Source: Enterobacteria phage vB_EcoM_IME540 | Direction: 5' to 3' (one strand) | Sequence record: MT150133.1 | Length of the DNA: 64,000 bases | Shown here: in pieces, positions 613 to 62,785 of the stretch | Layout: each line of letters begins with the position of its first letter | How positions within the stretch are numbered: the first letter of the stretch is position 1 | Translations under genes and position numbers: made by a program | The notes under the pieces: model-generated | What the model saw: only the letters and a program-made list of their open reading frames with translations | Database searches by the model: none | What the model was told of the DNA's origin: nothing

Positions 613-2697
613 TTACCCTTGGATGAATTTTTCTGGGATGTCATAGAGGTCTATGCATGAAGCCAAAAGAGGCAGTACATCAAACCGTGTAGATTTAACA
701 AATGAATCAAAAGATACGGGGCTTTCGGAAGTATCGAAGTCATCTTGATATACGACCAACTCGCCGGTTTCCATTAGTACGTCACCATCATATACCACAG
801 ATTCTTGAAGCTCATCTGTTGTCATAACTTCAGCTTGGATGAGTTTTGTATTACTAGATGTTGTTCCATCATTATTAGAAGCATCTGTTATTTTATTAAC
901 TTTGACCATTAATCCACGCGGTAGAATAACTTCGGCTTCAGTTGCTATTCCGAGATTTCCTGGATATACGACATTAACTTTATGAGCCCCATCAATGGCC
1001 CATCCTATTTGAACCTTAACGTAATCGGGATTTTCCTTATACGCTCTTATTTCATTAGGATTAATAGTTATTCCTTCTTCATTTTTATCAACTGTCAATT
1101 CGTTGCGAACTTCCGGTTCTAAAAGACCAATACCAGCGTGCGTAACACCAAAACGTCCGAAAATTATAGGAGTTAAAGAAGTAGATACAAAATTTCTAAA
1201 ATAAAACACTTTATTTTTAACTAGTGCTTCGTATATAGGAGCAGTCATACTCTGGGCACGATAAACTGTAATGCCTTCCGGTATACGGTCACCATTTTCA
1301 AAAGCTGAATCTAAATTATTTACAGCGGATTCGATATCTTTTTCGCTCATAACCTCATAGTTCTGAGGATTATAACGTCCTAAAAGAAGATTATTTATGT
1401 CTGTATATCCTGAACCACAATATTCTCTGATGCCGCGCTTTTGTGATGGGGTATATTTAGAGCCCTCACGAGCAATAGTAATATCGACCATAATACCACC
1501 ACCTACACCAGCAAAACTATACACACGTTTTTTAATGAACTTAGTCTTGGCTGCTTTCCACTTGGACTCGGTTAATTCATTCCAGACGTCGTCAGGTTGG
1601 CCTTTACGAGTTCTGTTATGGATAGCCAGCCACTCGCCTTTATATTCTTCGAAAATGGTATTAATGGTAGAGGCATATTTTTCCAGGGCTTTAACAGATG
1701 TCAAAGGTTCATTTTTGATAGCTGTAAGAATTTTCTCTTTAATTTTCTCTTGGATTTCACCAATACCGTGAAGTGGGAACAATTTATAGTCGTAATGCAA
1801 TTCTTCAGCAGTGCCTTCAGCTACTATATTAGCAACCTTATTTTTAGCCGCAGGAGAATTGTTATTAGTGACCATTTCCTGGGCCTCAGGGATTAATGGA
1901 ACTGTTGCCGGTTTATTAAAATCTACTGCAGTAGCTTCATATTTCTTAAACAGCTCACTTTCATTACGATAAGATTCTAACGATTGACTTGCCGCAATAG
2001 CACGTCGAGAAATCTTAGTCTTGGTTATAACCATTTTATCAGTGCGACGTTCTTCAACCTTAGCAATACTACCGGCGATAGCAGTTTCTTTAGTAACCTG
2101 CACGCCTTCTTTTTTAGAAATATAAACTTCACCGACATCAGAATCTACCTTAGTATACAATTCAGCATTAATTCCAGGCATACCTTTGATATCTTCTATA
2201 TCAGCTTGTTTACGAACTACCAGGATGTAAGTATGTTTACCGGTAAATTGGTACATAGCCGGAACTACTTTAAAACGTCCACCTGTTTTCTGTGCTACCA
2301 AACGTTGGATAATCCGTTGAACGATAGGGCCTTGACCTTTCATTTTCTTAGTAGGGAAACGGAACATCACGGCATCCATACGAAGCTTTTTAACTTGGTC
2401 ATAAACCACATCAAAAATAGTATTAATCGCATCTACGGGAGTAGGGCCTAGGCCACCTTTAAGTTCGGCAGGCGAACCTTTAGCTGAAAGGCTCATAAGG
2501 ATAACGTGGGCATATTTATCACCCATCTTAACCTGTTTAATAGCATCACCTTCAGAAGCGTAGGATACCATACGCGCCACTAATTGGGATTCTGCGTCAC
2601 CAATCTTCCAAATCTGGGGTACTTTAAGTTTTGGGTTCAAGTTTACTGTAGGCAGTGTGCCTTCGGACTCAAACACTTCATTTAATTGTTCGGTCAT
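613..2697 (-). CDS. alt: Alt-like ADP-ribosyltransferase (virion-packaged ART of T4)
   Basis: 694-aa ORF; length and position next to ligase match T4 Alt (682 aa); C-terminal region has ART-like motifs (YRAQS...FVSTSL); identification from memory of T4 Alt. Confidence 0.75.
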   Translation of the reverse strand: MTEQLNEVFESEGTLPTVNLNPKLKVPQIWKIGDAESQLVARMVSYASEGDAIKQVKMGDKYAHVILMSLSAKGSPAELKGGLGPTPVDAINTIFDVVYDQVKKLRMDAVMFRFPTKKMKGQGPIVQRIIQRLVAQKTGGRFKVVPAMYQFTGKHTYILVVRKQADIEDIKGMPGINAELYTKVDSDVGEVYISKKEGVQVTKETAIAGSIAKVEERRTDKMVITKTKISRRAIAASQSLESYRNESELFKKYEATAVDFNKPATVPLIPEAQEMVTNNNSPAAKNKVANIVAEGTAEELHYDYKLFPLHGIGEIQEKIKEKILTAIKNEPLTSVKALEKYASTINTIFEEYKGEWLAIHNRTRKGQPDDVWNELTESKWKAAKTKFIKKRVYSFAGVGGGIMVDITIAREGSKYTPSQKRGIREYCGSGYTDINNLLLGRYNPQNYEVMSEKDIESAVNNLDSAFENGDRIPEGITVYRAQSMTAPIYEALVKNKVFYFRNFVSTSLTPIIFGRFGVTHAGIGLLEPEVRNELTVDKNEEGITINPNEIRAYKENPDYVKVQIGWAIDGAHKVNVVYPGNLGIATEAEVILPRGLMVKVNKITDASNNDGTTSSNTKLIQAEVMTTDELQESVVYDGDVLMETGELVVYQDDFDTSESPVSFDSFVKSTRFDVLPLLASCIDLYDIPEKFIQG

Positions 2698-2733: not shown

Positions 2734-2749
2734 AAGGCCCGAAGGCCTT
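2734..2749 (-). terminator. UUCG tetraloop hairpin
   Basis: AAGGCC-UUCG-GGCCUU on minus strand between small ORF and alt; weak U tract. Confidence 0.45.
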
Positions 2750-2751
2750 TA

Positions 2752-2934
2752 TTAAAGTACTAACAGCGTACGGTACACTTCAAATTTAGGACCCTTTTCA
2801 TAGCGGTCGAAATTATCTTTAAAATCAGCGAACGCGATTTCATTTTCAAATTCAAGGACAATTTGGGACACTGCAGTGGAGACATCCCCACCTTCTTTAT
2901 ATCCAATAACCACGGTTTCTAAATAAGCTTTCAT
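2752..2934 (-). CDS. hypothetical small protein
   Basis: ORF track 2752..2976; start trimmed to ATG at 2934, directly after the ligase stop; start uncertain. Confidence 0.3.
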   Translation of the reverse strand: MKAYLETVVIGYKEGGDVSTAVSQIVLEFENEIAFADFKDNFDRYEKGPKFEVYRTLLVL

Positions 2935-2935
2935 A

Positions 2936-4459
2936 TTATAGACCAGTTTGAGACCAATCACCGAATACATCTTCAAATGTATCAGCTTCTGTTTTATCGA
3001 AACGCCAACCTTTAATGATTGGAAGGAAAATACCTACAGTATCAGTACGTCCTTTAGAATGAACCCAACCATTACATTCACAGTCAGCAATACGTCCAAT
3101 CAACTTACCTTCACGAGCTTGTTTCATAAGAAGTTCACGGTCTAAATCAGGACGGTCTTCCAATGGAATCAATACCTTTTTACCTGATTTATCTTTCTTA
3201 TGGGTAGTATCTTTAAAGCCTGAACCACAGTCACTTGTAATTCGACGACAACGTGATACTAACTCAACACCACCTAGTTTGTTAGGGTCCTTCGAGTGTT
3301 CATAATAACCTACCACTTCTAAAGCGATATCGATTACTTCTTTGAACTTGATAAGATTCTTAGAACGGCGGTTTTCCCAGTAGGAGTCCATGTTCTTAAG
3401 GATAATGCCTTCCAGACCTTGGTCGACATATTTCTTATAAACGACTTTAGCTTCTTCAAGATTATTAACCCACTGGTTTTCGATAGCTTCAACACGCGTT
3501 GTGCCATGCAATACGACATTATGAGCCACCATAAGTTCTAAGGCTGTAAAGCGTACATCATACTTATCGCCTTTAATTTTGCCTTCAGAATACACGACAT
3601 CCAGTGGGACATAATCCCATGCCTGTAATACCATACCAGCGGCTTCAGTAGCCGAAATAGTTCCTTGAAGAGCCTTATTAGCCAATCCATTTGACGTAGA
3701 ACGATCGGCGACAGTTTGGAATTCCTTAGCCTTACTTAATTCAGGAAGTTCCTCGTCAAACATACTAAACAAATCATTAGATGCTTTAGGTTCTACCTTA
3801 GGAGTATGGTAAACTAATTCGCCATCAATCATAACGCCATTAGGATGGCGTTGTCGAGCTTCTTCGGTCATGGCCATTAATTCAGCCGCCAAAAGATTAA
3901 GCCCTTGATATTCGTTACCACCACGAGTAAGGAATGTCACACCATCGTTACGAACTTCGGCAAAACAACGAGCACCATCAGCTTTTAATTGAGCAAACGC
4001 TGGCCATTTAATATTTTTCTTAATCAAAGCTTCATCATAAGAACTCGCCAACATCTGCGGTTGTTCAGGGATTAAACCTTTCCAAACCTTGTTAGCAATA
4101 GAAATCGATGCACCACATTCAAGGTCGCGCATCATTACACGACGTAATACCTCGGCATCCGGGGCCTTAGCATCAGCAATGATTTGAGCCAGTTCTTCAA
4201 TAGCCGCATTACCCGTAATCTTACGTGTGGCTAATGTGAATTCAGCGAAATCAAGAAGGTCTTCAAGAGTAATCATACCAAAGGATTGAGATGTAAATCC
4301 AGGTTCTGGCCACTTTTTAATACCGTAGTTCAGACGACGGGTATAAGCCATACGATAAACACGTTTCAGAAGCTCATTGTCCTTTTCACGAGCAATAATG
4401 GCTTCTTTAGCTTTAGTAGAATCAATAGCAGCAATTTCGTTTAAAATATCTAAAATCAT
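2936..4459 (-). CDS. 30: ATP-dependent DNA ligase
   Basis: Strong resemblance to T4 gp30 (MILDILNEIA..., KADGARC adenylation motif); start set at MILD ATG rather than the upstream ORF-track start. Confidence 0.92.
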   Translation of the reverse strand: MILDILNEIAAIDSTKAKEAIIAREKDNELLKRVYRMAYTRRLNYGIKKWPEPGFTSQSFGMITLEDLLDFAEFTLATRKITGNAAIEELAQIIADAKAPDAEVLRRVMMRDLECGASISIANKVWKGLIPEQPQMLASSYDEALIKKNIKWPAFAQLKADGARCFAEVRNDGVTFLTRGGNEYQGLNLLAAELMAMTEEARQRHPNGVMIDGELVYHTPKVEPKASNDLFSMFDEELPELSKAKEFQTVADRSTSNGLANKALQGTISATEAAGMVLQAWDYVPLDVVYSEGKIKGDKYDVRFTALELMVAHNVVLHGTTRVEAIENQWVNNLEEAKVVYKKYVDQGLEGIILKNMDSYWENRRSKNLIKFKEVIDIALEVVGYYEHSKDPNKLGGVELVSRCRRITSDCGSGFKDTTHKKDKSGKKVLIPLEDRPDLDRELLMKQAREGKLIGRIADCECNGWVHSKGRTDTVGIFLPIIKGWRFDKTEADTFEDVFGDWSQTGL

Positions 4460-17634: not shown

Positions 17635-19890
17635 TTAAAGCTTACATGCTGCACAATCGTCGGCTTTAGGAGTTTCGATTTCGTAGTCATCAGTACCAGA
17701 GCCATCTCGGGTATTATGATAGTAAAGGTTCTTACCGCCGTAGTACCAGAAATACAGCAGGTCATCAAGCATTACCGACATCGGAACTTTTCCTTTTGGG
17801 AAAATCTGTGGGTCGTAATATGTATTCGCTGATGCTGATTGACACACCCATTTCAACGCTATTGCCACTTGGGTAAGATAAGGTTTATTACCTTTCTTAG
17901 CAAGGGTCCAAGCGTAATCGTAGAGTCCTTGGTTATGTTCTACATTAGGAACTACCTGACGGAAGTTACCTTCTTTAGATTCTTTAATACTTACCGGACC
18001 ACGTGGAGGTTCGATACCGTTTGTAGAGTTGGAAACCTGGCTGCTTGATTCACACGGCATAAGTGCTGATAATGTGCTATTACGGATGCCATGTTTAGCC
18101 AAGTCTTCCCGCAACGACGCCCAGTCACAAACATAGTTAGGGGCTGCGATTTGGTCAATCTTTTTATTGTACCAGTCGATAGGTAATTCGCCTCGAGACC
18201 ATTTAGTGTCTGAATAATACTCGCAAGGTCCTTTTTCTTCGGCCAACCTGATTGATGCTCGGATAAGTCCATATTGTAATCTCTCAAACAGTTCATGAGT
18301 TAAATCGTTTGCGTCTTCATAAGAAGCAAAGTTGCTTGCTAACCAAGCGGCATAGTTCGTAACACCAACACCCAGGTTGCGACGTTTCTTGGCCTTCAGA
18401 GCTTCAGGAACAGGATAATCTTGATAGTCCAACAGGTTATCAAGTGCACGTACTTGTACTTCAGCCAGCTCGTTGATTTTGTCTTGGTCCTGCCAATCGA
18501 AGTTATCCAATACGAATGCAGACAACGTACACAAACCAATTTCAGCGTCAGGACTATTCACGTCAGTAGTCGGGATAGCAATTTCACAACACAAGTTGCT
18601 CTGACGAATAGGAGCTTTTTCACGAATAAATGGTGTGAAGTTGTTAGTGTTATCAACGAACTGAGGATAAATTCGTGCAGTGCCTGAACGTTCAGTCATG
18701 AACAATTCGAAAAGGTCGCGTGCCTTAATACGTTTCTTACGAATACTAGGGTCTTTTTCTGCGGCTTCATACAATTCACGGAAACGGTCTTGGTCTTCGA
18801 AATAAGAATAGTAAAGCTCACCACCCATTTCATGAGGACTAAACAACGTGATGTAATCATTTTTACCGAAACGTTCCATCATAAGGTCGTTCATCTGGAT
18901 TCCGTAGTCCATATGGCGAATACGGTTCTCATCGACACCTTTGTTGTTTTTCAGAACGAGCAGATTTTCAACTTCCAAATGCCAAATAGGATAATAAGCA
19001 GTAGCAGCGCCGCCACGGATTCCACCTTGTGAACATGATTTAACAGCAGTCTGGAAATGTTTCCAGAATGGAATAACACCGGTATGCTTGACTTCGCCCA
19101 TGCCAATACGAGAACCTTCAGCACGAATCATACCAACGTTGATACCAATACCGGCACGTTTAGAAATGTATTCAATTATTGAGTTAGCAGTTTTGTTAAT
19201 AGATTTCAGTGAGTCGCCTGCTTCAATAACCACACAAGAACTAAATTGACGGGTTGGTGTACGTGCTCCAGCCATAATAGGAGTTGGTAATGAAACCTGA
19301 CGGGTACTTACAGCATCATAAAAACGAATAATATGTGCTAAACGATTACCTGGCTCGTCTTGGTGTAAGGCCATACCAATACACATGATAGCGAACTGAG
19401 GGGTTTCGTAGATTTTACCGGTTGTTTTATCTTTAACCAGATATTTCTCTTTAAGCTGCATCGCACCAGCATAAGTCAATTCGAAATCGCGTTCATGCTT
19501 TATATGAGATTCTAAGAAAGTAATTTCTTCTGCAGAATATCGAGACAACAATTCAGGGTCATATTTACCTTCGTTAACACAATAGGAAATATGGTCGATA
19601 AAGCTACGTGGTTCGAACTGCCCATAAACTTCTTTACGCAGTGCAAACATCAATTCTTTTGCAGCAACATATTGGTAATCAGGCTCTTCAACCGAGATAA
19701 GGTTGGCTGCTACCTTAACAGTCAGATTTTGGATATCTTTGGTAGTCATACCGTCACGAAGATGGGATTTGATTTCTTCGTATAATTCATAGGGGTCGAT
19801 TTGGGTTCCTTCACAGCCCCAAGTCAGAACTTTAATAATTTTTTGTGCGTCAAAATCTTGGGATACACCACTACTTTTTTGTACTTGCAT
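17635..19890 (-). CDS. nrdA: ribonucleotide reductase large subunit
   Basis: 751 aa, near-colinear with T4 NrdA. Confidence 0.93.
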   Translation of the reverse strand: MQVQKSSGVSQDFDAQKIIKVLTWGCEGTQIDPYELYEEIKSHLRDGMTTKDIQNLTVKVAANLISVEEPDYQYVAAKELMFALRKEVYGQFEPRSFIDHISYCVNEGKYDPELLSRYSAEEITFLESHIKHERDFELTYAGAMQLKEKYLVKDKTTGKIYETPQFAIMCIGMALHQDEPGNRLAHIIRFYDAVSTRQVSLPTPIMAGARTPTRQFSSCVVIEAGDSLKSINKTANSIIEYISKRAGIGINVGMIRAEGSRIGMGEVKHTGVIPFWKHFQTAVKSCSQGGIRGGAATAYYPIWHLEVENLLVLKNNKGVDENRIRHMDYGIQMNDLMMERFGKNDYITLFSPHEMGGELYYSYFEDQDRFRELYEAAEKDPSIRKKRIKARDLFELFMTERSGTARIYPQFVDNTNNFTPFIREKAPIRQSNLCCEIAIPTTDVNSPDAEIGLCTLSAFVLDNFDWQDQDKINELAEVQVRALDNLLDYQDYPVPEALKAKKRRNLGVGVTNYAAWLASNFASYEDANDLTHELFERLQYGLIRASIRLAEEKGPCEYYSDTKWSRGELPIDWYNKKIDQIAAPNYVCDWASLREDLAKHGIRNSTLSALMPCESSSQVSNSTNGIEPPRGPVSIKESKEGNFRQVVPNVEHNQGLYDYAWTLAKKGNKPYLTQVAIALKWVCQSASANTYYDPQIFPKGKVPMSVMLDDLLYFWYYGGKNLYYHNTRDGSGTDDYEIETPKADDCAACKL

Positions 19891-37686: not shown

Positions 37687-37694
37687 TATAAATA
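37687..37694 (+). promoter_or_regulatory. late promoter for holin t
   Basis: Exact TATAAATA 19 nt upstream of ATG at 37713. Confidence 0.7.
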
Positions 37695-37712: not shown

Positions 37713-38366
37713 ATGGAACCAAAAGTAGGAATATCATTATCAGACCTACTTTTTGGACTTCTTGATAGAATTTTTAAAGATACTTCTTCCGGGAAAGTAG
37801 TTTTTTCCCGGGTCCTAGTCGTGATATTATTGTTCTTTATGGCATTGGTTTGGTATAAAGGCGAGTATATTCTAAACTTTTATAAAGAGACAACTTATGC
37901 CTCTTATACTGAAATGATTAGACAAGACCAGGACAATAGATTTAAAATTGCGGCTATCGAGCAGCTCCGAATAGTGCATTCTTCTTCAGGCGCAGACTTC
38001 ACAGCAATATATTCTTTTAGACCAACCAACATGAATTATTTTGTGGATATGGTGGCTTACGAGGGTAAATTACCGGAAACGGTAGACGCAAAAAATACGG
38101 GAGGGTTTCCAATTGACAAAACGTCAGTAGAATATATGGTGGGAGTTAACGGGAACTATTTTGAATCAAGTACCGAAACTGTATTCCTTCCTACAAAGAA
38201 GAAAACACAATTCACGTATATGTTTTCGTGCCCGTTTTTTAATTTGGATAACGTCTACGCCGGCTCGATATCGTTGTACTGGTATGATATCAAACCGGAT
38301 TTAGGATTTCCTAGACTTTCGTCTATGTGCGGTCAGGCTGGGAGGACATTAGGTCGAACACGTTAG
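37713..38366 (+). CDS. t: holin
   Basis: 217 aa; resembles T4 holin T; single N-terminal transmembrane region. Confidence 0.9.
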   Translation: MEPKVGISLSDLLFGLLDRIFKDTSSGKVVFSRVLVVILLFFMALVWYKGEYILNFYKETTYASYTEMIRQDQDNRFKIAAIEQLRIVHSSSGADFTAIYSFRPTNMNYFVDMVAYEGKLPETVDAKNTGGFPIDKTSVEYMVGVNGNYFESSTETVFLPTKKKTQFTYMFSCPFFNLDNVYAGSISLYWYDIKPDLGFPRLSSMCGQAGRTLGRTR

Positions 38367-60539: not shown

Positions 60540-61061
60540 TTAATAACCTCGGTCCTGGCGAGCAAAGTTCTCGGCATTTTTCAGATAATACAGTTTAAAG
60601 ATTTCTTCAGCAGTCAGACCAAGACCTTGGAACATATTCAGAACGAAATGGAGAATATCGATCATTTCAAATTTAATTTCGAGCTGGTCTTCAGGAGACA
60701 AATCGTTAATCAAGGTTTCACGACGTTCAGCATGCTGAGCTTTCCAAGGCTTCCATACTGCTGATGCATCTTTTTCACCATTGCTCATACCACCAAGAGA
60801 AGTCAGAAGTTCACGGAATTCATCATCAATATAATCTTTCTGATTACGCAGCCAATCAACAACTTCACCTGCAGTAGCCAAATCATCAGGATGACGGTTG
60901 TATTCAGGTTTATCTTTAGATAAACGGACCTGTAATGATTTCTGCATATCAAGCATAACCTGCAGAGGGTCTTTATCTTCATGAATCAGAGCATTAAAAT
61001 AAGCTTCCTCAGCTTTATCAACACCAGCAATTAGGTTTGCGCATTCGTTAAAGTGTGCCAT
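60540..61061 (-). CDS. 56: dCTPase/dUTPase (MazG-like)
   Basis: Resembles T4 gp56 (MAHFNECA...DPLQVMLDMQ...IDDEFRELLTSLG...FARQDRGY); start at MAHFNE. Confidence 0.85.
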   Translation of the reverse strand: MAHFNECANLIAGVDKAEEAYFNALIHEDKDPLQVMLDMQKSLQVRLSKDKPEYNRHPDDLATAGEVVDWLRNQKDYIDDEFRELLTSLGGMSNGEKDASAVWKPWKAQHAERRETLINDLSPEDQLEIKFEMIDILHFVLNMFQGLGLTAEEIFKLYYLKNAENFARQDRGY

Positions 61062-61151
61062 TATATTTTTCCTTTTCAATTCATTAGTAAGTTAGATAAT
61101 TATAAACTGTTAGATTAAAGCGAATAAATATTAATTTAACAGGAGGATAAC

Positions 61152-61352
61152 ATGGGCAGTATTTTTTACCAAATCTGGAAATTGGCCGAAAAGAAAGACA
61201 AGAAAATGATGTTAGGTTTTCTTGCGCTAGACGTATTCCTTTGGAATCTTTTAGTAGTCCCTGTAGCCGCTAGCCAAGGGATAATTTTACCAGCGGTTAC
61301 AATGGAACACGTATTAAGCATAATTGGATTCTTTAGCGGAATTCCTGCCTAA
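61152..61352 (+). CDS. small membrane protein on the opposite strand
   Basis: AGGAGG about 5 nt upstream of ATG; 66 aa with two hydrophobic segments; 3' end overlaps gene 61 stop convergently. Confidence 0.45.
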   Translation: MGSIFYQIWKLAEKKDKKMMLGFLALDVFLWNLLVVPVAASQGIILPAVTMEHVLSIIGFFSGIPA

Positions 61353-62377
61353 ATTTTGGAATATTTCGAAAGTCTCATTTTAGCCATTAGACCTTGGGCT
61401 ATATTAGCTTTCATATATGCCAGTACATCATTTATATCAGCTTTATCTTTCATAATCATATCATTTATATCTTTAGAAGGCCATGGAGCCTTGTCCCAGA
61501 ATAGAACCCTTTCGCCGGCATCAACTAATCGTTGCATACGCTTAATTGTGTCAGGATGGCGGGGTTCATTGTCCATTACCCAGGCACGAGTTTCTTTACA
61601 TGGAACCATAGCCAAGTCCAACGACCCGCCAGTAATTGCTATTGCATTCGGTACGAATAATGAATCGATAGGACCTTCCATTACCCACACCAACTGACGT
61701 TCGTCGACAGTATCCATTCCATATATTTTTGTAGCTTGGTCATGAGCTTTTATTGTAATATATTTTTGTGGAGCATCTTTACGTAAGGCTCGACCCTGAA
61801 AACTTTCTATTTGTTTATCCTTATTGAAAATAGGAATAACCAAACGAGGCTCAGGCATTTCTTTAGAATAGGTCCCTGGATTGACAGAGTTCACCAATGC
61901 CGGCCATTCTTTAGTAAACCATAAGCGATTCCATTTGTTTTCAGGAATGCAACGTAGTGTTACATATTTGATAATAGGATGGTCCTTCGGCATTCTATCT
62001 AATCGTTCGCAGAAATTAAGCTTTTCGATAACGGGCATCTTAGCTTTAATTTTTTCAGATATCTCCACCTTAGGTGCAGCTTGTCTCCCGAACGATTGCT
62101 CTTTATGTTTCTCAAGAATATATTCTCGATATAAATCCGGCTCGTATTCGTATAGATACTTCTTAATTCCTGCCGAATAGTCGCAGTTAAAACAGTGCAG
62201 CATTACGGAGCCATCATTAGCCGGATAGGCCCAAAAACGAGCTTTGTTCTCATCTTTTTGGGAGTCGCCACATACACGACAACGACAGTTTAATTTAAAA
62301 TCACTACCAGTTACTTGTCTGAATTTAGGTTGGTAATTCAAGGCACGTACAGCAAATTCTCTATCGACATATGACAT
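61349..62377 (-). CDS. 61: DNA primase
   Basis: 342 aa; near-colinear with T4 gp61 (zinc ribbon CRCRVCGDS...HCFNC, TOPRIM). Confidence 0.92.
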   Translation of the reverse strand: MSYVDREFAVRALNYQPKFRQVTGSDFKLNCRCRVCGDSQKDENKARFWAYPANDGSVMLHCFNCDYSAGIKKYLYEYEPDLYREYILEKHKEQSFGRQAAPKVEISEKIKAKMPVIEKLNFCERLDRMPKDHPIIKYVTLRCIPENKWNRLWFTKEWPALVNSVNPGTYSKEMPEPRLVIPIFNKDKQIESFQGRALRKDAPQKYITIKAHDQATKIYGMDTVDERQLVWVMEGPIDSLFVPNAIAITGGSLDLAMVPCKETRAWVMDNEPRHPDTIKRMQRLVDAGERVLFWDKAPWPSKDINDMIMKDKADINDVLAYMKANIAQGLMAKMRLSKYSKI

Positions 62378-62415: not shown

Positions 62416-62577
62416 TCATTCGTTTTCGGATTTTTCTTTACGCTTTTTAGATGGGATTTGTTCAGGCCCTTTGTTGACGACCGCGCCTGAGGTAGTTCCG
62501 GAGGCAATATTAGATGGGTTACCACCTGCATCGCCTGCGACCATATCTTCGTTCATAACTTCTTTAAAAGATTTCAT
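62416..62577 (-). CDS. small hypothetical protein (53 aa)
   Basis: Hand-translated MKSFKEVMNEDMVAGDAGGNPSNIASGTTSG...; AGGAG 5 nt upstream of ATG; below track cut-off. Confidence 0.4.
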   Translation of the reverse strand: MKSFKEVMNEDMVAGDAGGNPSNIASGTTSGAVVNKGPEQIPSKKRKEKSENE

Positions 62578-62593
62578 AGGCTCCTGGCCTTAT

Positions 62594-62785
62594 TTATATT
62601 ACGAAAATAGCTTTATCACCATTCGCATCAGTGACTTCATAGGTATCTTCATGATACAGTGGGATAATCCAAGTCACACCATCACCGGCAATAATATGGA
62701 TAGCTTCTTGGTCCTTTGATACGATTTCATACTCTTCGAATAATTCGAATACAGAAATCTTAGAGCCCGTACACATTGCACTCAT
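62594..62785 (-). CDS. hypothetical protein
   Basis: ORF track. Confidence 0.35.
   Translation of the reverse strand: MSAMCTGSKISVFELFEEYEIVSKDQEAIHIIAGDGVTWIIPLYHEDTYEVTDANGDKAIFVI

Follow-up and report, generated by a model that had tools for sequence, protein, structure and literature searches.

The interval between genes 56 and 61 of the T4-type phage vB_EcoM_IME540 raises the question of whether a short open reading frame (ORF) found there, on the strand opposite to all long ORFs around it, is a genuine gene, at which stage of infection it would be expressed and what its product would do. The stretch of DNA analysed, called here the window, comprises 64,000 nucleotides (sequence record MT150133.1) and belongs to a Dhakavirus which, in this region, shares 96.8% identity with Escherichia phage QL01 and 94.5% with JS98. 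An earlier, sequence-only reading of the window had described a plus-strand ORF of 66 codons with an AGGAGG ribosome-binding sequence, which ends over the stop codon of gene 61 and is surrounded by genes of the minus strand, and the analysis confirmed each of these points (Table 1). The TAA stop codon of the ORF (61350-61352) shares 4 nt with the TAG stop codon of the convergent gene 61, and the long ORFs on both sides are all on the minus strand. In the QL01 record the ORF at this site is annotated as a hypothetical protein, and in the JS98 record it is unannotated.

Table 1. Features of the gene 56-gene 61 interval, segments of the 66-amino-acid protein, and related loci. Positions are those of the window, except in the last row, where they are those of each locus.
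Feature	Position	Strand	Basis or remark
Gene 56, dCTPase	60540..61061	-	PHROG 173, E 7e-46; annotation of JS98 and QL01
Middle-promoter-like site for gene 56: GCTTTA (MotA-box-like), 11 nt, TATAAT	61099..61121	-	Read from the sequence
Late-promoter-like box AATAAATA	61123..61130	+	T4 consensus TATAAATA; end of box 21 nt before ATG
Shine-Dalgarno sequence AGGAGG	61141..61146	+	5-nt spacer to the ATG of the 66-aa ORF
CDS of the 66-aa protein, T4 dam.1 homologue, PHROG 2024 member	61152..61352 (stop included)	+	ATG start; ORF list, sequence
Basic N-terminal helix, residues 1-18, 5 Lys	61152..61205	+	Alignment; AlphaFold2 helix 4-41
Transmembrane helix, residues 19-41, invariant W31-N32 and P37	61206..61274	+	Hydropathy, hhalign; aligns with TM2 of PF11351
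Conserved loop, residues 42-50, G43-x3-P47-x-V49	61275..61301	+	Invariant columns; AlphaFold2 coil
Second helix, hydrophobic, partly amphipathic, residues 51-66	61302..61349	+	Aligns with TM3 of PF11351
Gene 61, DNA primase	61349..62377	-	PHROG 47, E 4e-97; annotation of JS98 and QL01
Canonical T holin gene of the same phage	37713..38366	+	PF11031 Phage_holin_T, E 2.4e-66; TATAAATA at 37687 upstream
Recurrent prophage and metagenomic module	L016 4670..6291; L019 4681..6291; L020 4553..6082; L021 2627..5243; L124 4001..5610; L127 2669..4213		

The predicted product was analysed for hydropathy and structure. Kyte-Doolittle means over 19 residues were about 2.0 around residues 19-41 and 1.2-1.7 towards the C-terminus, and the AlphaFold2 model, of modest confidence (mean pLDDT 69), contained helices at residues 4-41 and 51-61 separated by a coil at residues 42-50; the two-helix hydrophobic protein supposed at the outset is thus borne out by both analyses. 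According to the positive-inside rule, the N-terminus is predicted to be cytoplasmic. The second helix begins with a conserved acidic residue and has its end near G63. The search of BFVD for similar folds with this model returned family members only. A possible dual-start motif at Met19/Met20 of the window protein was rejected, as these residues are not conserved in the T4 type of the family described below.

Database searches revealed that the window protein matches phrog_2024 with an E-value of 4.8e-28, residues 1-64 aligning on profile positions 1-64 of 65; PHROG 2024 is a family listed with function unknown. Homologues located at the same convergent position beside gene 61 were found in more than 800 phage records, T4 included, and tblastn retrieved ORFs of the window type from 131 records. 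The comparison of the 56-61 interval among related phages, suggested as a check in the sequence-only reading, showed conservation of the ORF in at least 10 genera rather than its absence from close relatives: it was found in Dhakavirus, Gaprivervirus, Mosigvirus, Tequatrovirus (T4) and Marfavirus, and likewise, convergent beside the primase gene, in Kanagawavirus, Mosugukvirus, Gelderlandvirus, Moonvirus and Klebsiella phage Roth51. In every locus opened (Marfa, VR26, Q7622, PM2, CGG4-1, CIP9, PEi20, Merlin, JK36, and Roth51), an ORF of 61-74 amino acids lies opposite to the primase strand and abuts or overlaps the 3' end of the primase gene, and the convergent position abutting gene 61 was recorded for the window and 14 related phages.

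Frame and length (61-74 amino acids) are kept across genera down to approximately 20-35% identity, and besides the start Met the residues W31, N32, P37, G43, P47, V49, and G63 are invariant across three subfamilies. Between the window and Marfa, there were 12, 4, and 38 changes at codon positions 1, 2, and 3, respectively (pN 0.135, pS 0.77), and between CIP9 and PEi20 there were 2, 3, and 21 (pN 0.040, pS 0.46, dN/dS 0.06), so the synonymous sites of the ORF are saturated and the protein is conserved. In addition, each of the 12 lineages compared has GGAG or GAGG ahead of the start codon. A spurious gene call on an ORF arising by chance in an AT-rich spacer would be short, as this one is, and would have no Pfam family and no annotation in records such as JS98 and the reference T4 genome, but it would hardly keep its frame, length and invariant residues, show a low pN at saturated synonymous sites, or be preceded by a conserved Shine-Dalgarno sequence and promoter box, and the comparative data effectively exclude this explanation. 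The 66-amino-acid ORF is almost certainly a real gene, and its product a membrane protein. In public records, the ORF has received several mistaken automatic names, namely "thymidylate synthase" (SHP1, phage 04086), "DNA packaging ATPase" (SAKp28, UPEC01), "dCTP pyrophosphatase" (CGG4-1 gp026), and "DNA helicase" (ESCO10).

The corresponding interval of T4 had been described as holding additional genes, among them dam; dam is indeed present there, but not in place of the ORF, since a 66-amino-acid homologue lies in the same interval, beside gene 61. In the T4 reference record (NC_000866.4) this homologue occupies positions 17738..17938 (2739..2939 of locus L011), within the 309-bp gap between dam and gene 61 for which no feature is listed, and only the record of phage T4T (HM137666.1) names the ORF, as dam.1, a hypothetical protein (ADJ39749.1). 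ORFs of the T4 dam.1 type were found in 698 records. Like the window ORF, dam.1 encodes 66 amino acids, is convergent with gene 61 and overlaps its stop codon by 4 nt. It is preceded by its own GGAGG and GATAAATA, and the upstream string gcg(A)ATAAATATTAATTTAA, followed by GGAGG, is nearly identical in the two phages. The proteins also share the core W-N-x4-P ... G-x3-P-x-V and the match to phrog_2024, which for dam.1 has an E-value of 4.6e-31. Identity between them is approximately 20-40%, with a BLASTP alignment of just 25 residues, and the two types form separate subfamilies. Since they are separate and both occur in tandem in Gaprivervirus VR26 (1295..1492 and 1501..1701 of locus L004), the subfamilies are better described as paralogous lineages of one family. 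The literature search found no paper on dam.1, T4 Ribo-seq or unannotated T4 genes.

Genomic context analyses showed that the gene is present at the 3' end of the primase gene in most Tevenvirinae genera, in Marfavirus and in Klebsiella phage Roth51, and that it is absent from that site, the one inspected, in phiR1-RT, Aeromonas 44RR2.8t, Acinetobacter ZZ1, KP15, RB43, and ECD7; in KP15 and ECD7, gene 56 directly follows gene 61. Both subfamilies were also observed in tandem in Gaprivervirus DK-13 (1749..1946 and 2001..2126 of locus L015), and in this phage and its relatives the second copy is reduced to residues 25-66, with a homing-endonuclease gene separating it from the primase gene. In IME08, VR5, and AnYang, a mobE-like endonuclease gene comes between the ORF and gene 56, and the interval as a whole is a hot spot for homing endonucleases.

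Regarding expression, the window ORF is preceded by a box of the late-promoter type, a feature of T4-type late genes. The box is AATAAATA in the window and a perfect TATAAATA in Marfa, Q7622, and CIP9. Of 50 listed late promoters of T4, 32 are perfect and nine have A in place of T at -13, which is the commonest accepted variant, and late transcripts of T4 occur in either polarity (PMC2988020). In 10 of 12 lineages, the core ATAAATA was located 19-28 nt upstream of the ATG, compared to 0.32 expected from shuffled sequences, and it persists between genera whose sequence upstream of the ORF diverges. Over the whole window, ATAAATA is depleted (14 copies on both strands compared to 26.3 +/- 4.7 expected from shuffles), which is consistent with avoidance of spurious late promoters, and four of the five plus-strand copies are found 18-33 nt upstream of the start codons of gene 34, gene 36, t, and the 66-amino-acid ORF. 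Judging from the position of the box, approximately 6-7 nt upstream, the late transcript would be expected to start at about 61136-61138.

Since the ORF has a late-promoter motif of its own, it most likely belongs to the late genes, and its transcript would continue into gene 61 in antisense orientation. The idea of a membrane protein expressed antisense to early transcription therefore stands in so far as there is a genuine small membrane-protein gene on the opposite strand, with a strong ribosome-binding site and converging on gene 61, but it needs refining with respect to timing, as the motif points to late expression. The promoter-like sequence that had been assigned to gene 56 fits a candidate site made of GCTTTA and TATAAT, which, set against the T4 middle-promoter consensus, would resemble a MotA-dependent middle promoter. 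This site stands back to back with the late box of the plus strand, 1-2 bp apart, and GCTT(T/A)A recurs in JK36, PM2, and DK-13. On the minus strand, a perfect TATAAATA is found at 62591..62598, 13 nt before the ATG of gene 61.1 (62416..62577, 53 amino acids), and a further one before soc (60537), which places late promoters on the minus strand inside the early region.

The same arrangement could be read as mainly regulatory, with the plus-strand transcript acting either as antisense RNA on gene 61 or within an origin of the oriA kind, and with the ORF merely incidental. The ORF converges on gene 61 with overlapping stop codons, and no terminator was found between the two (the scan was no better than shuffles), so a late transcript would run antisense into the primase mRNA; moreover, the middle-promoter-like site of gene 56 adjoins, and the primer of T4 oriA is a gene 56 transcript according to the T4 record. 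The codon-position pattern, however, indicates selection on the protein and not on RNA, and within the 56-61 interval only weak short repeat matches, no origin-like features, no Rfam match or structured RNA, and no excess of sigma-70-like sites over shuffles were detected. In Roth51, a GC-rich hairpin, GGGGCtttgGCCCC (about 1920..1945 of locus L116), separates the convergent ORF from the primase gene, in contrast to the window and T4, where the stop codons overlap and a terminator is absent, and antisense read-through is thus not conserved. In the phages compared, the ORF remains linked to gene 61, at its 3' end, and not to gene 56 or oriA, and in T4 it is separated by dam from the annotated oriA by approximately 1 kb. 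These results give no backing to the earlier suggestion of a link to an origin, and a mainly regulatory interval is very improbable.

With the ORF regarded as a late protein-coding gene, the relationship of its product to known families was investigated. The window protein had no Pfam match at E-values up to 1 and remained below the gathering threshold of PF11351 (24.8 bits); by Pfam's own criteria, the 66-amino-acid protein is not a member of PF11351. An exhaustive profile search of 1.84 billion cluster representatives retrieved only 23 proteins at E-values up to 1e-3, with 45-99 amino acids and the common motif (W/Y)-N-x4-P ... G-x2-(L)P-x2-P-(L)-(D/E). Enterobacterial prophage proteins of 80-99 amino acids (for example P0160, P0129, P0119, and P0130) are homologous to the C-terminal 45-50 residues of the 66-amino-acid family and match phrog_2024 with E-values of 1e-8 to 1e-11, but they possess an extra N-terminal amphipathic helix and a linker, which align with the N-terminal part of PF11351. 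Among such intermediate proteins, 32 of 42 matched PF11351 (GTA_holin_3TM) below threshold, with a best E-value of 8.5e-4, and some matched PHROG 3427 "holin." One UniProt entry of the family carries the unexplained name "Holin."

For direct comparison, gp44 of Roseobacter phage CRP-125, identified by tblastn, was used as a bona fide PF11351 protein (Pfam E 1.9e-15); its gene is located between tail-fibre genes and maturase A, which we take to be the position where T7 has the holin gene 17.5. The PF11351 set consisted of 85 relatives of gp44 from IMG/VR, and hhalign was run on strictly separated sets. The T4-type family aligned with the prophage-type proteins over the C-terminal core (Prob 97.9%, E 3.6e-13), and the prophage-type proteins aligned over their full length with the 85 PF11351 proteins (Prob 94.2%, E 1.1e-7). 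The T4-type family also aligned directly with PF11351 over the TM2-loop-TM3 segment (Prob 91.8%, E 7.3e-7), while reversed-sequence controls gave probabilities of 0.1-4.4% and E-values of 0.0094-0.48. With smaller alignments, the direct comparison gave a Prob of 39.9% (E 3e-4) and the bridging comparison one of 95.8%, so the direct match is moderate and varies with alignment depth, short hydrophobic proteins being prone to spurious profile matches. Taken at the profile level, these alignments suggest that the T4-type family is probably homologous to PF11351.

The 80-99-amino-acid relatives are common in enterobacterial chromosomes, P0160 alone being present on 941 contigs, and they are located at the end of prophage tail modules, after the tail-tip gene and beside a Phage_lysozyme gene. 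Their partners are a DUF2730-like membrane-anchored coiled-coil protein, a small GIY-YIG or Endonuclease VII gene, and two conserved proteins of approximately 180 and 105 amino acids. In a metagenomic phage (L124/L125), the family member belongs to a tight co-directional operon, in which it is followed in turn by proteins of 180 and 109 amino acids and by Phage_lysozyme. This lysis-cassette context supports a role of the intermediate proteins in lysis. A recurrent module was observed in enterobacterial prophages and metagenomic phages, consisting of a holin-family member, a basic soluble protein of approximately 180 amino acids, a protein of approximately 105 amino acids, usually a T4-type lysozyme, and a small GIY-YIG or Endonuclease VII gene. 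The two conserved proteins of this module matched no Pfam, PHROG or PADLOC family, and the search for phage homologues of the 189-amino-acid prophage cassette partner yielded one unrelated match only.

In the window itself, no endolysin or spanin gene adjoins the 66-amino-acid ORF, whose neighbours are the primase and dCTPase genes; adjacency to an endolysin gene is seen only in the distant prophage and metagenomic relatives. It is possible, if doubtful, that the product is a real late membrane protein unrelated to lysis, such as an assembly or packaging factor, a late superinfection-exclusion protein or one with an anti-defence role, in which case its likeness to PF11351 would go back to an ancient two-helix membrane module common to both, or would be convergent; this is the main competing explanation. 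The isolated position of the gene, at a distance from e, t, rI, and the spanin genes, in a phage that has a T holin, and the moderate direct match to PF11351, with the hallmark motifs of that family missing, would agree with such a role. So would the cassette copy of locus L019, which is found in a defence island beside a KAP NTPase (PADLOC PDC-S20) and an EcoRII system, although PADLOC matched neither the 66-amino-acid protein nor the cassette partners. Against a role outside lysis, the transitive homology to PF11351 is consistent in register and exceeds the reversed controls, and the intermediate proteins sit with endolysin genes.

The reading that we tentatively prefer, and consider quite possible, is that the 66-amino-acid product is a late inner-membrane protein of holin ancestry with an accessory function in membrane integrity or lysis timing. 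The gene would be transcribed from its own gp55-type late promoter, AATAAATA, with a start approximately 15 nt before a strongly initiated ATG, and would encode an inner-membrane protein of 66 residues with a basic cytoplasmic N-terminus and one transmembrane helix, followed by a short conserved loop in the periplasm and a second helix of hydrophobic or amphipathic character, probably arranged as an N-in/C-in hairpin. The family would represent a truncated distant relative of PF11351 (ICP1 TeaA and the RcGTA holin) that has kept the last two helices. Accumulating late in the inner membrane, the protein may oligomerise and affect membrane integrity or energisation, and hence could alter when lysis occurs or whether it is completed; it would assist the T holin and not replace it. 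T4 t mutants do not lyse and continue to respire, so under standard conditions the 66-amino-acid protein cannot suffice as a holin by itself.

Lysis and lysis inhibition in T4 are textbook cases for which t, e, rI, rIII, and the spanin genes are thought to give a complete account. The more specific proposal that T4 and most of its close relatives carry an overlooked second holin-family gene, a late two-helix remnant of the TeaA/GTA type that tunes inner-membrane de-energisation, is rather unlikely, but if true it could sharpen the triggering of the T holin or control the collapse of lysis inhibition, and would add a missing component to the best-studied phage lysis system. A conserved, apparently late, holin-family-related gene that is absent from the NC_000866.4 annotation and hypothetical elsewhere would be a candidate for adding a further level of control over the membrane or lysis in hundreds of phages, many of them considered for therapy. 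The ORF family is already present in databases, under the headings of hypothetical protein, PHROG 2024 and T4T dam.1; three points appear to be new, namely its reasoned connection with PF11351, the evidence of late-promoter conservation, and the finding that T4 itself carries the gene. In addition, an orphan PHROG becomes connected with a Pfam family, and wrong automatic ORF names in public records are exposed.

Compared to known systems, the 66-amino-acid family resembles PF11351, represented by ICP1 TeaA and the Rhodobacter capsulatus GTA holin, in consisting of small phage membrane proteins and in the pattern of an aromatic residue, a Pro six positions on, a Gly, (L)P, an acidic residue, and a Gly near the end. 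TeaA, for which holin activity has been measured, leads, when expressed alone, to collapse of the proton motive force and to lysis triggered by dinitrophenol (PMC7182436). The 66-amino-acid proteins are about half as long as PF11351 proteins, contain only the last two helices, and are devoid of the N-terminal helix, the coiled segment, the GWRPxIGW motif, and the basic or charged C-terminal tail RTFEKMKG; their gene has no endolysin gene beside it, and it occurs together with a canonical holin that is unrelated. Class II holins and pinholins, such as S68 of phage 21, are small late proteins with two hydrophobic helices. The 66-amino-acid protein lacks the dual-start motif and charged C-terminal domain that many holins typically have, but it resembles these proteins in its small size, its two hydrophobic helices, its likely N-in/C-in hairpin and its probable late expression.
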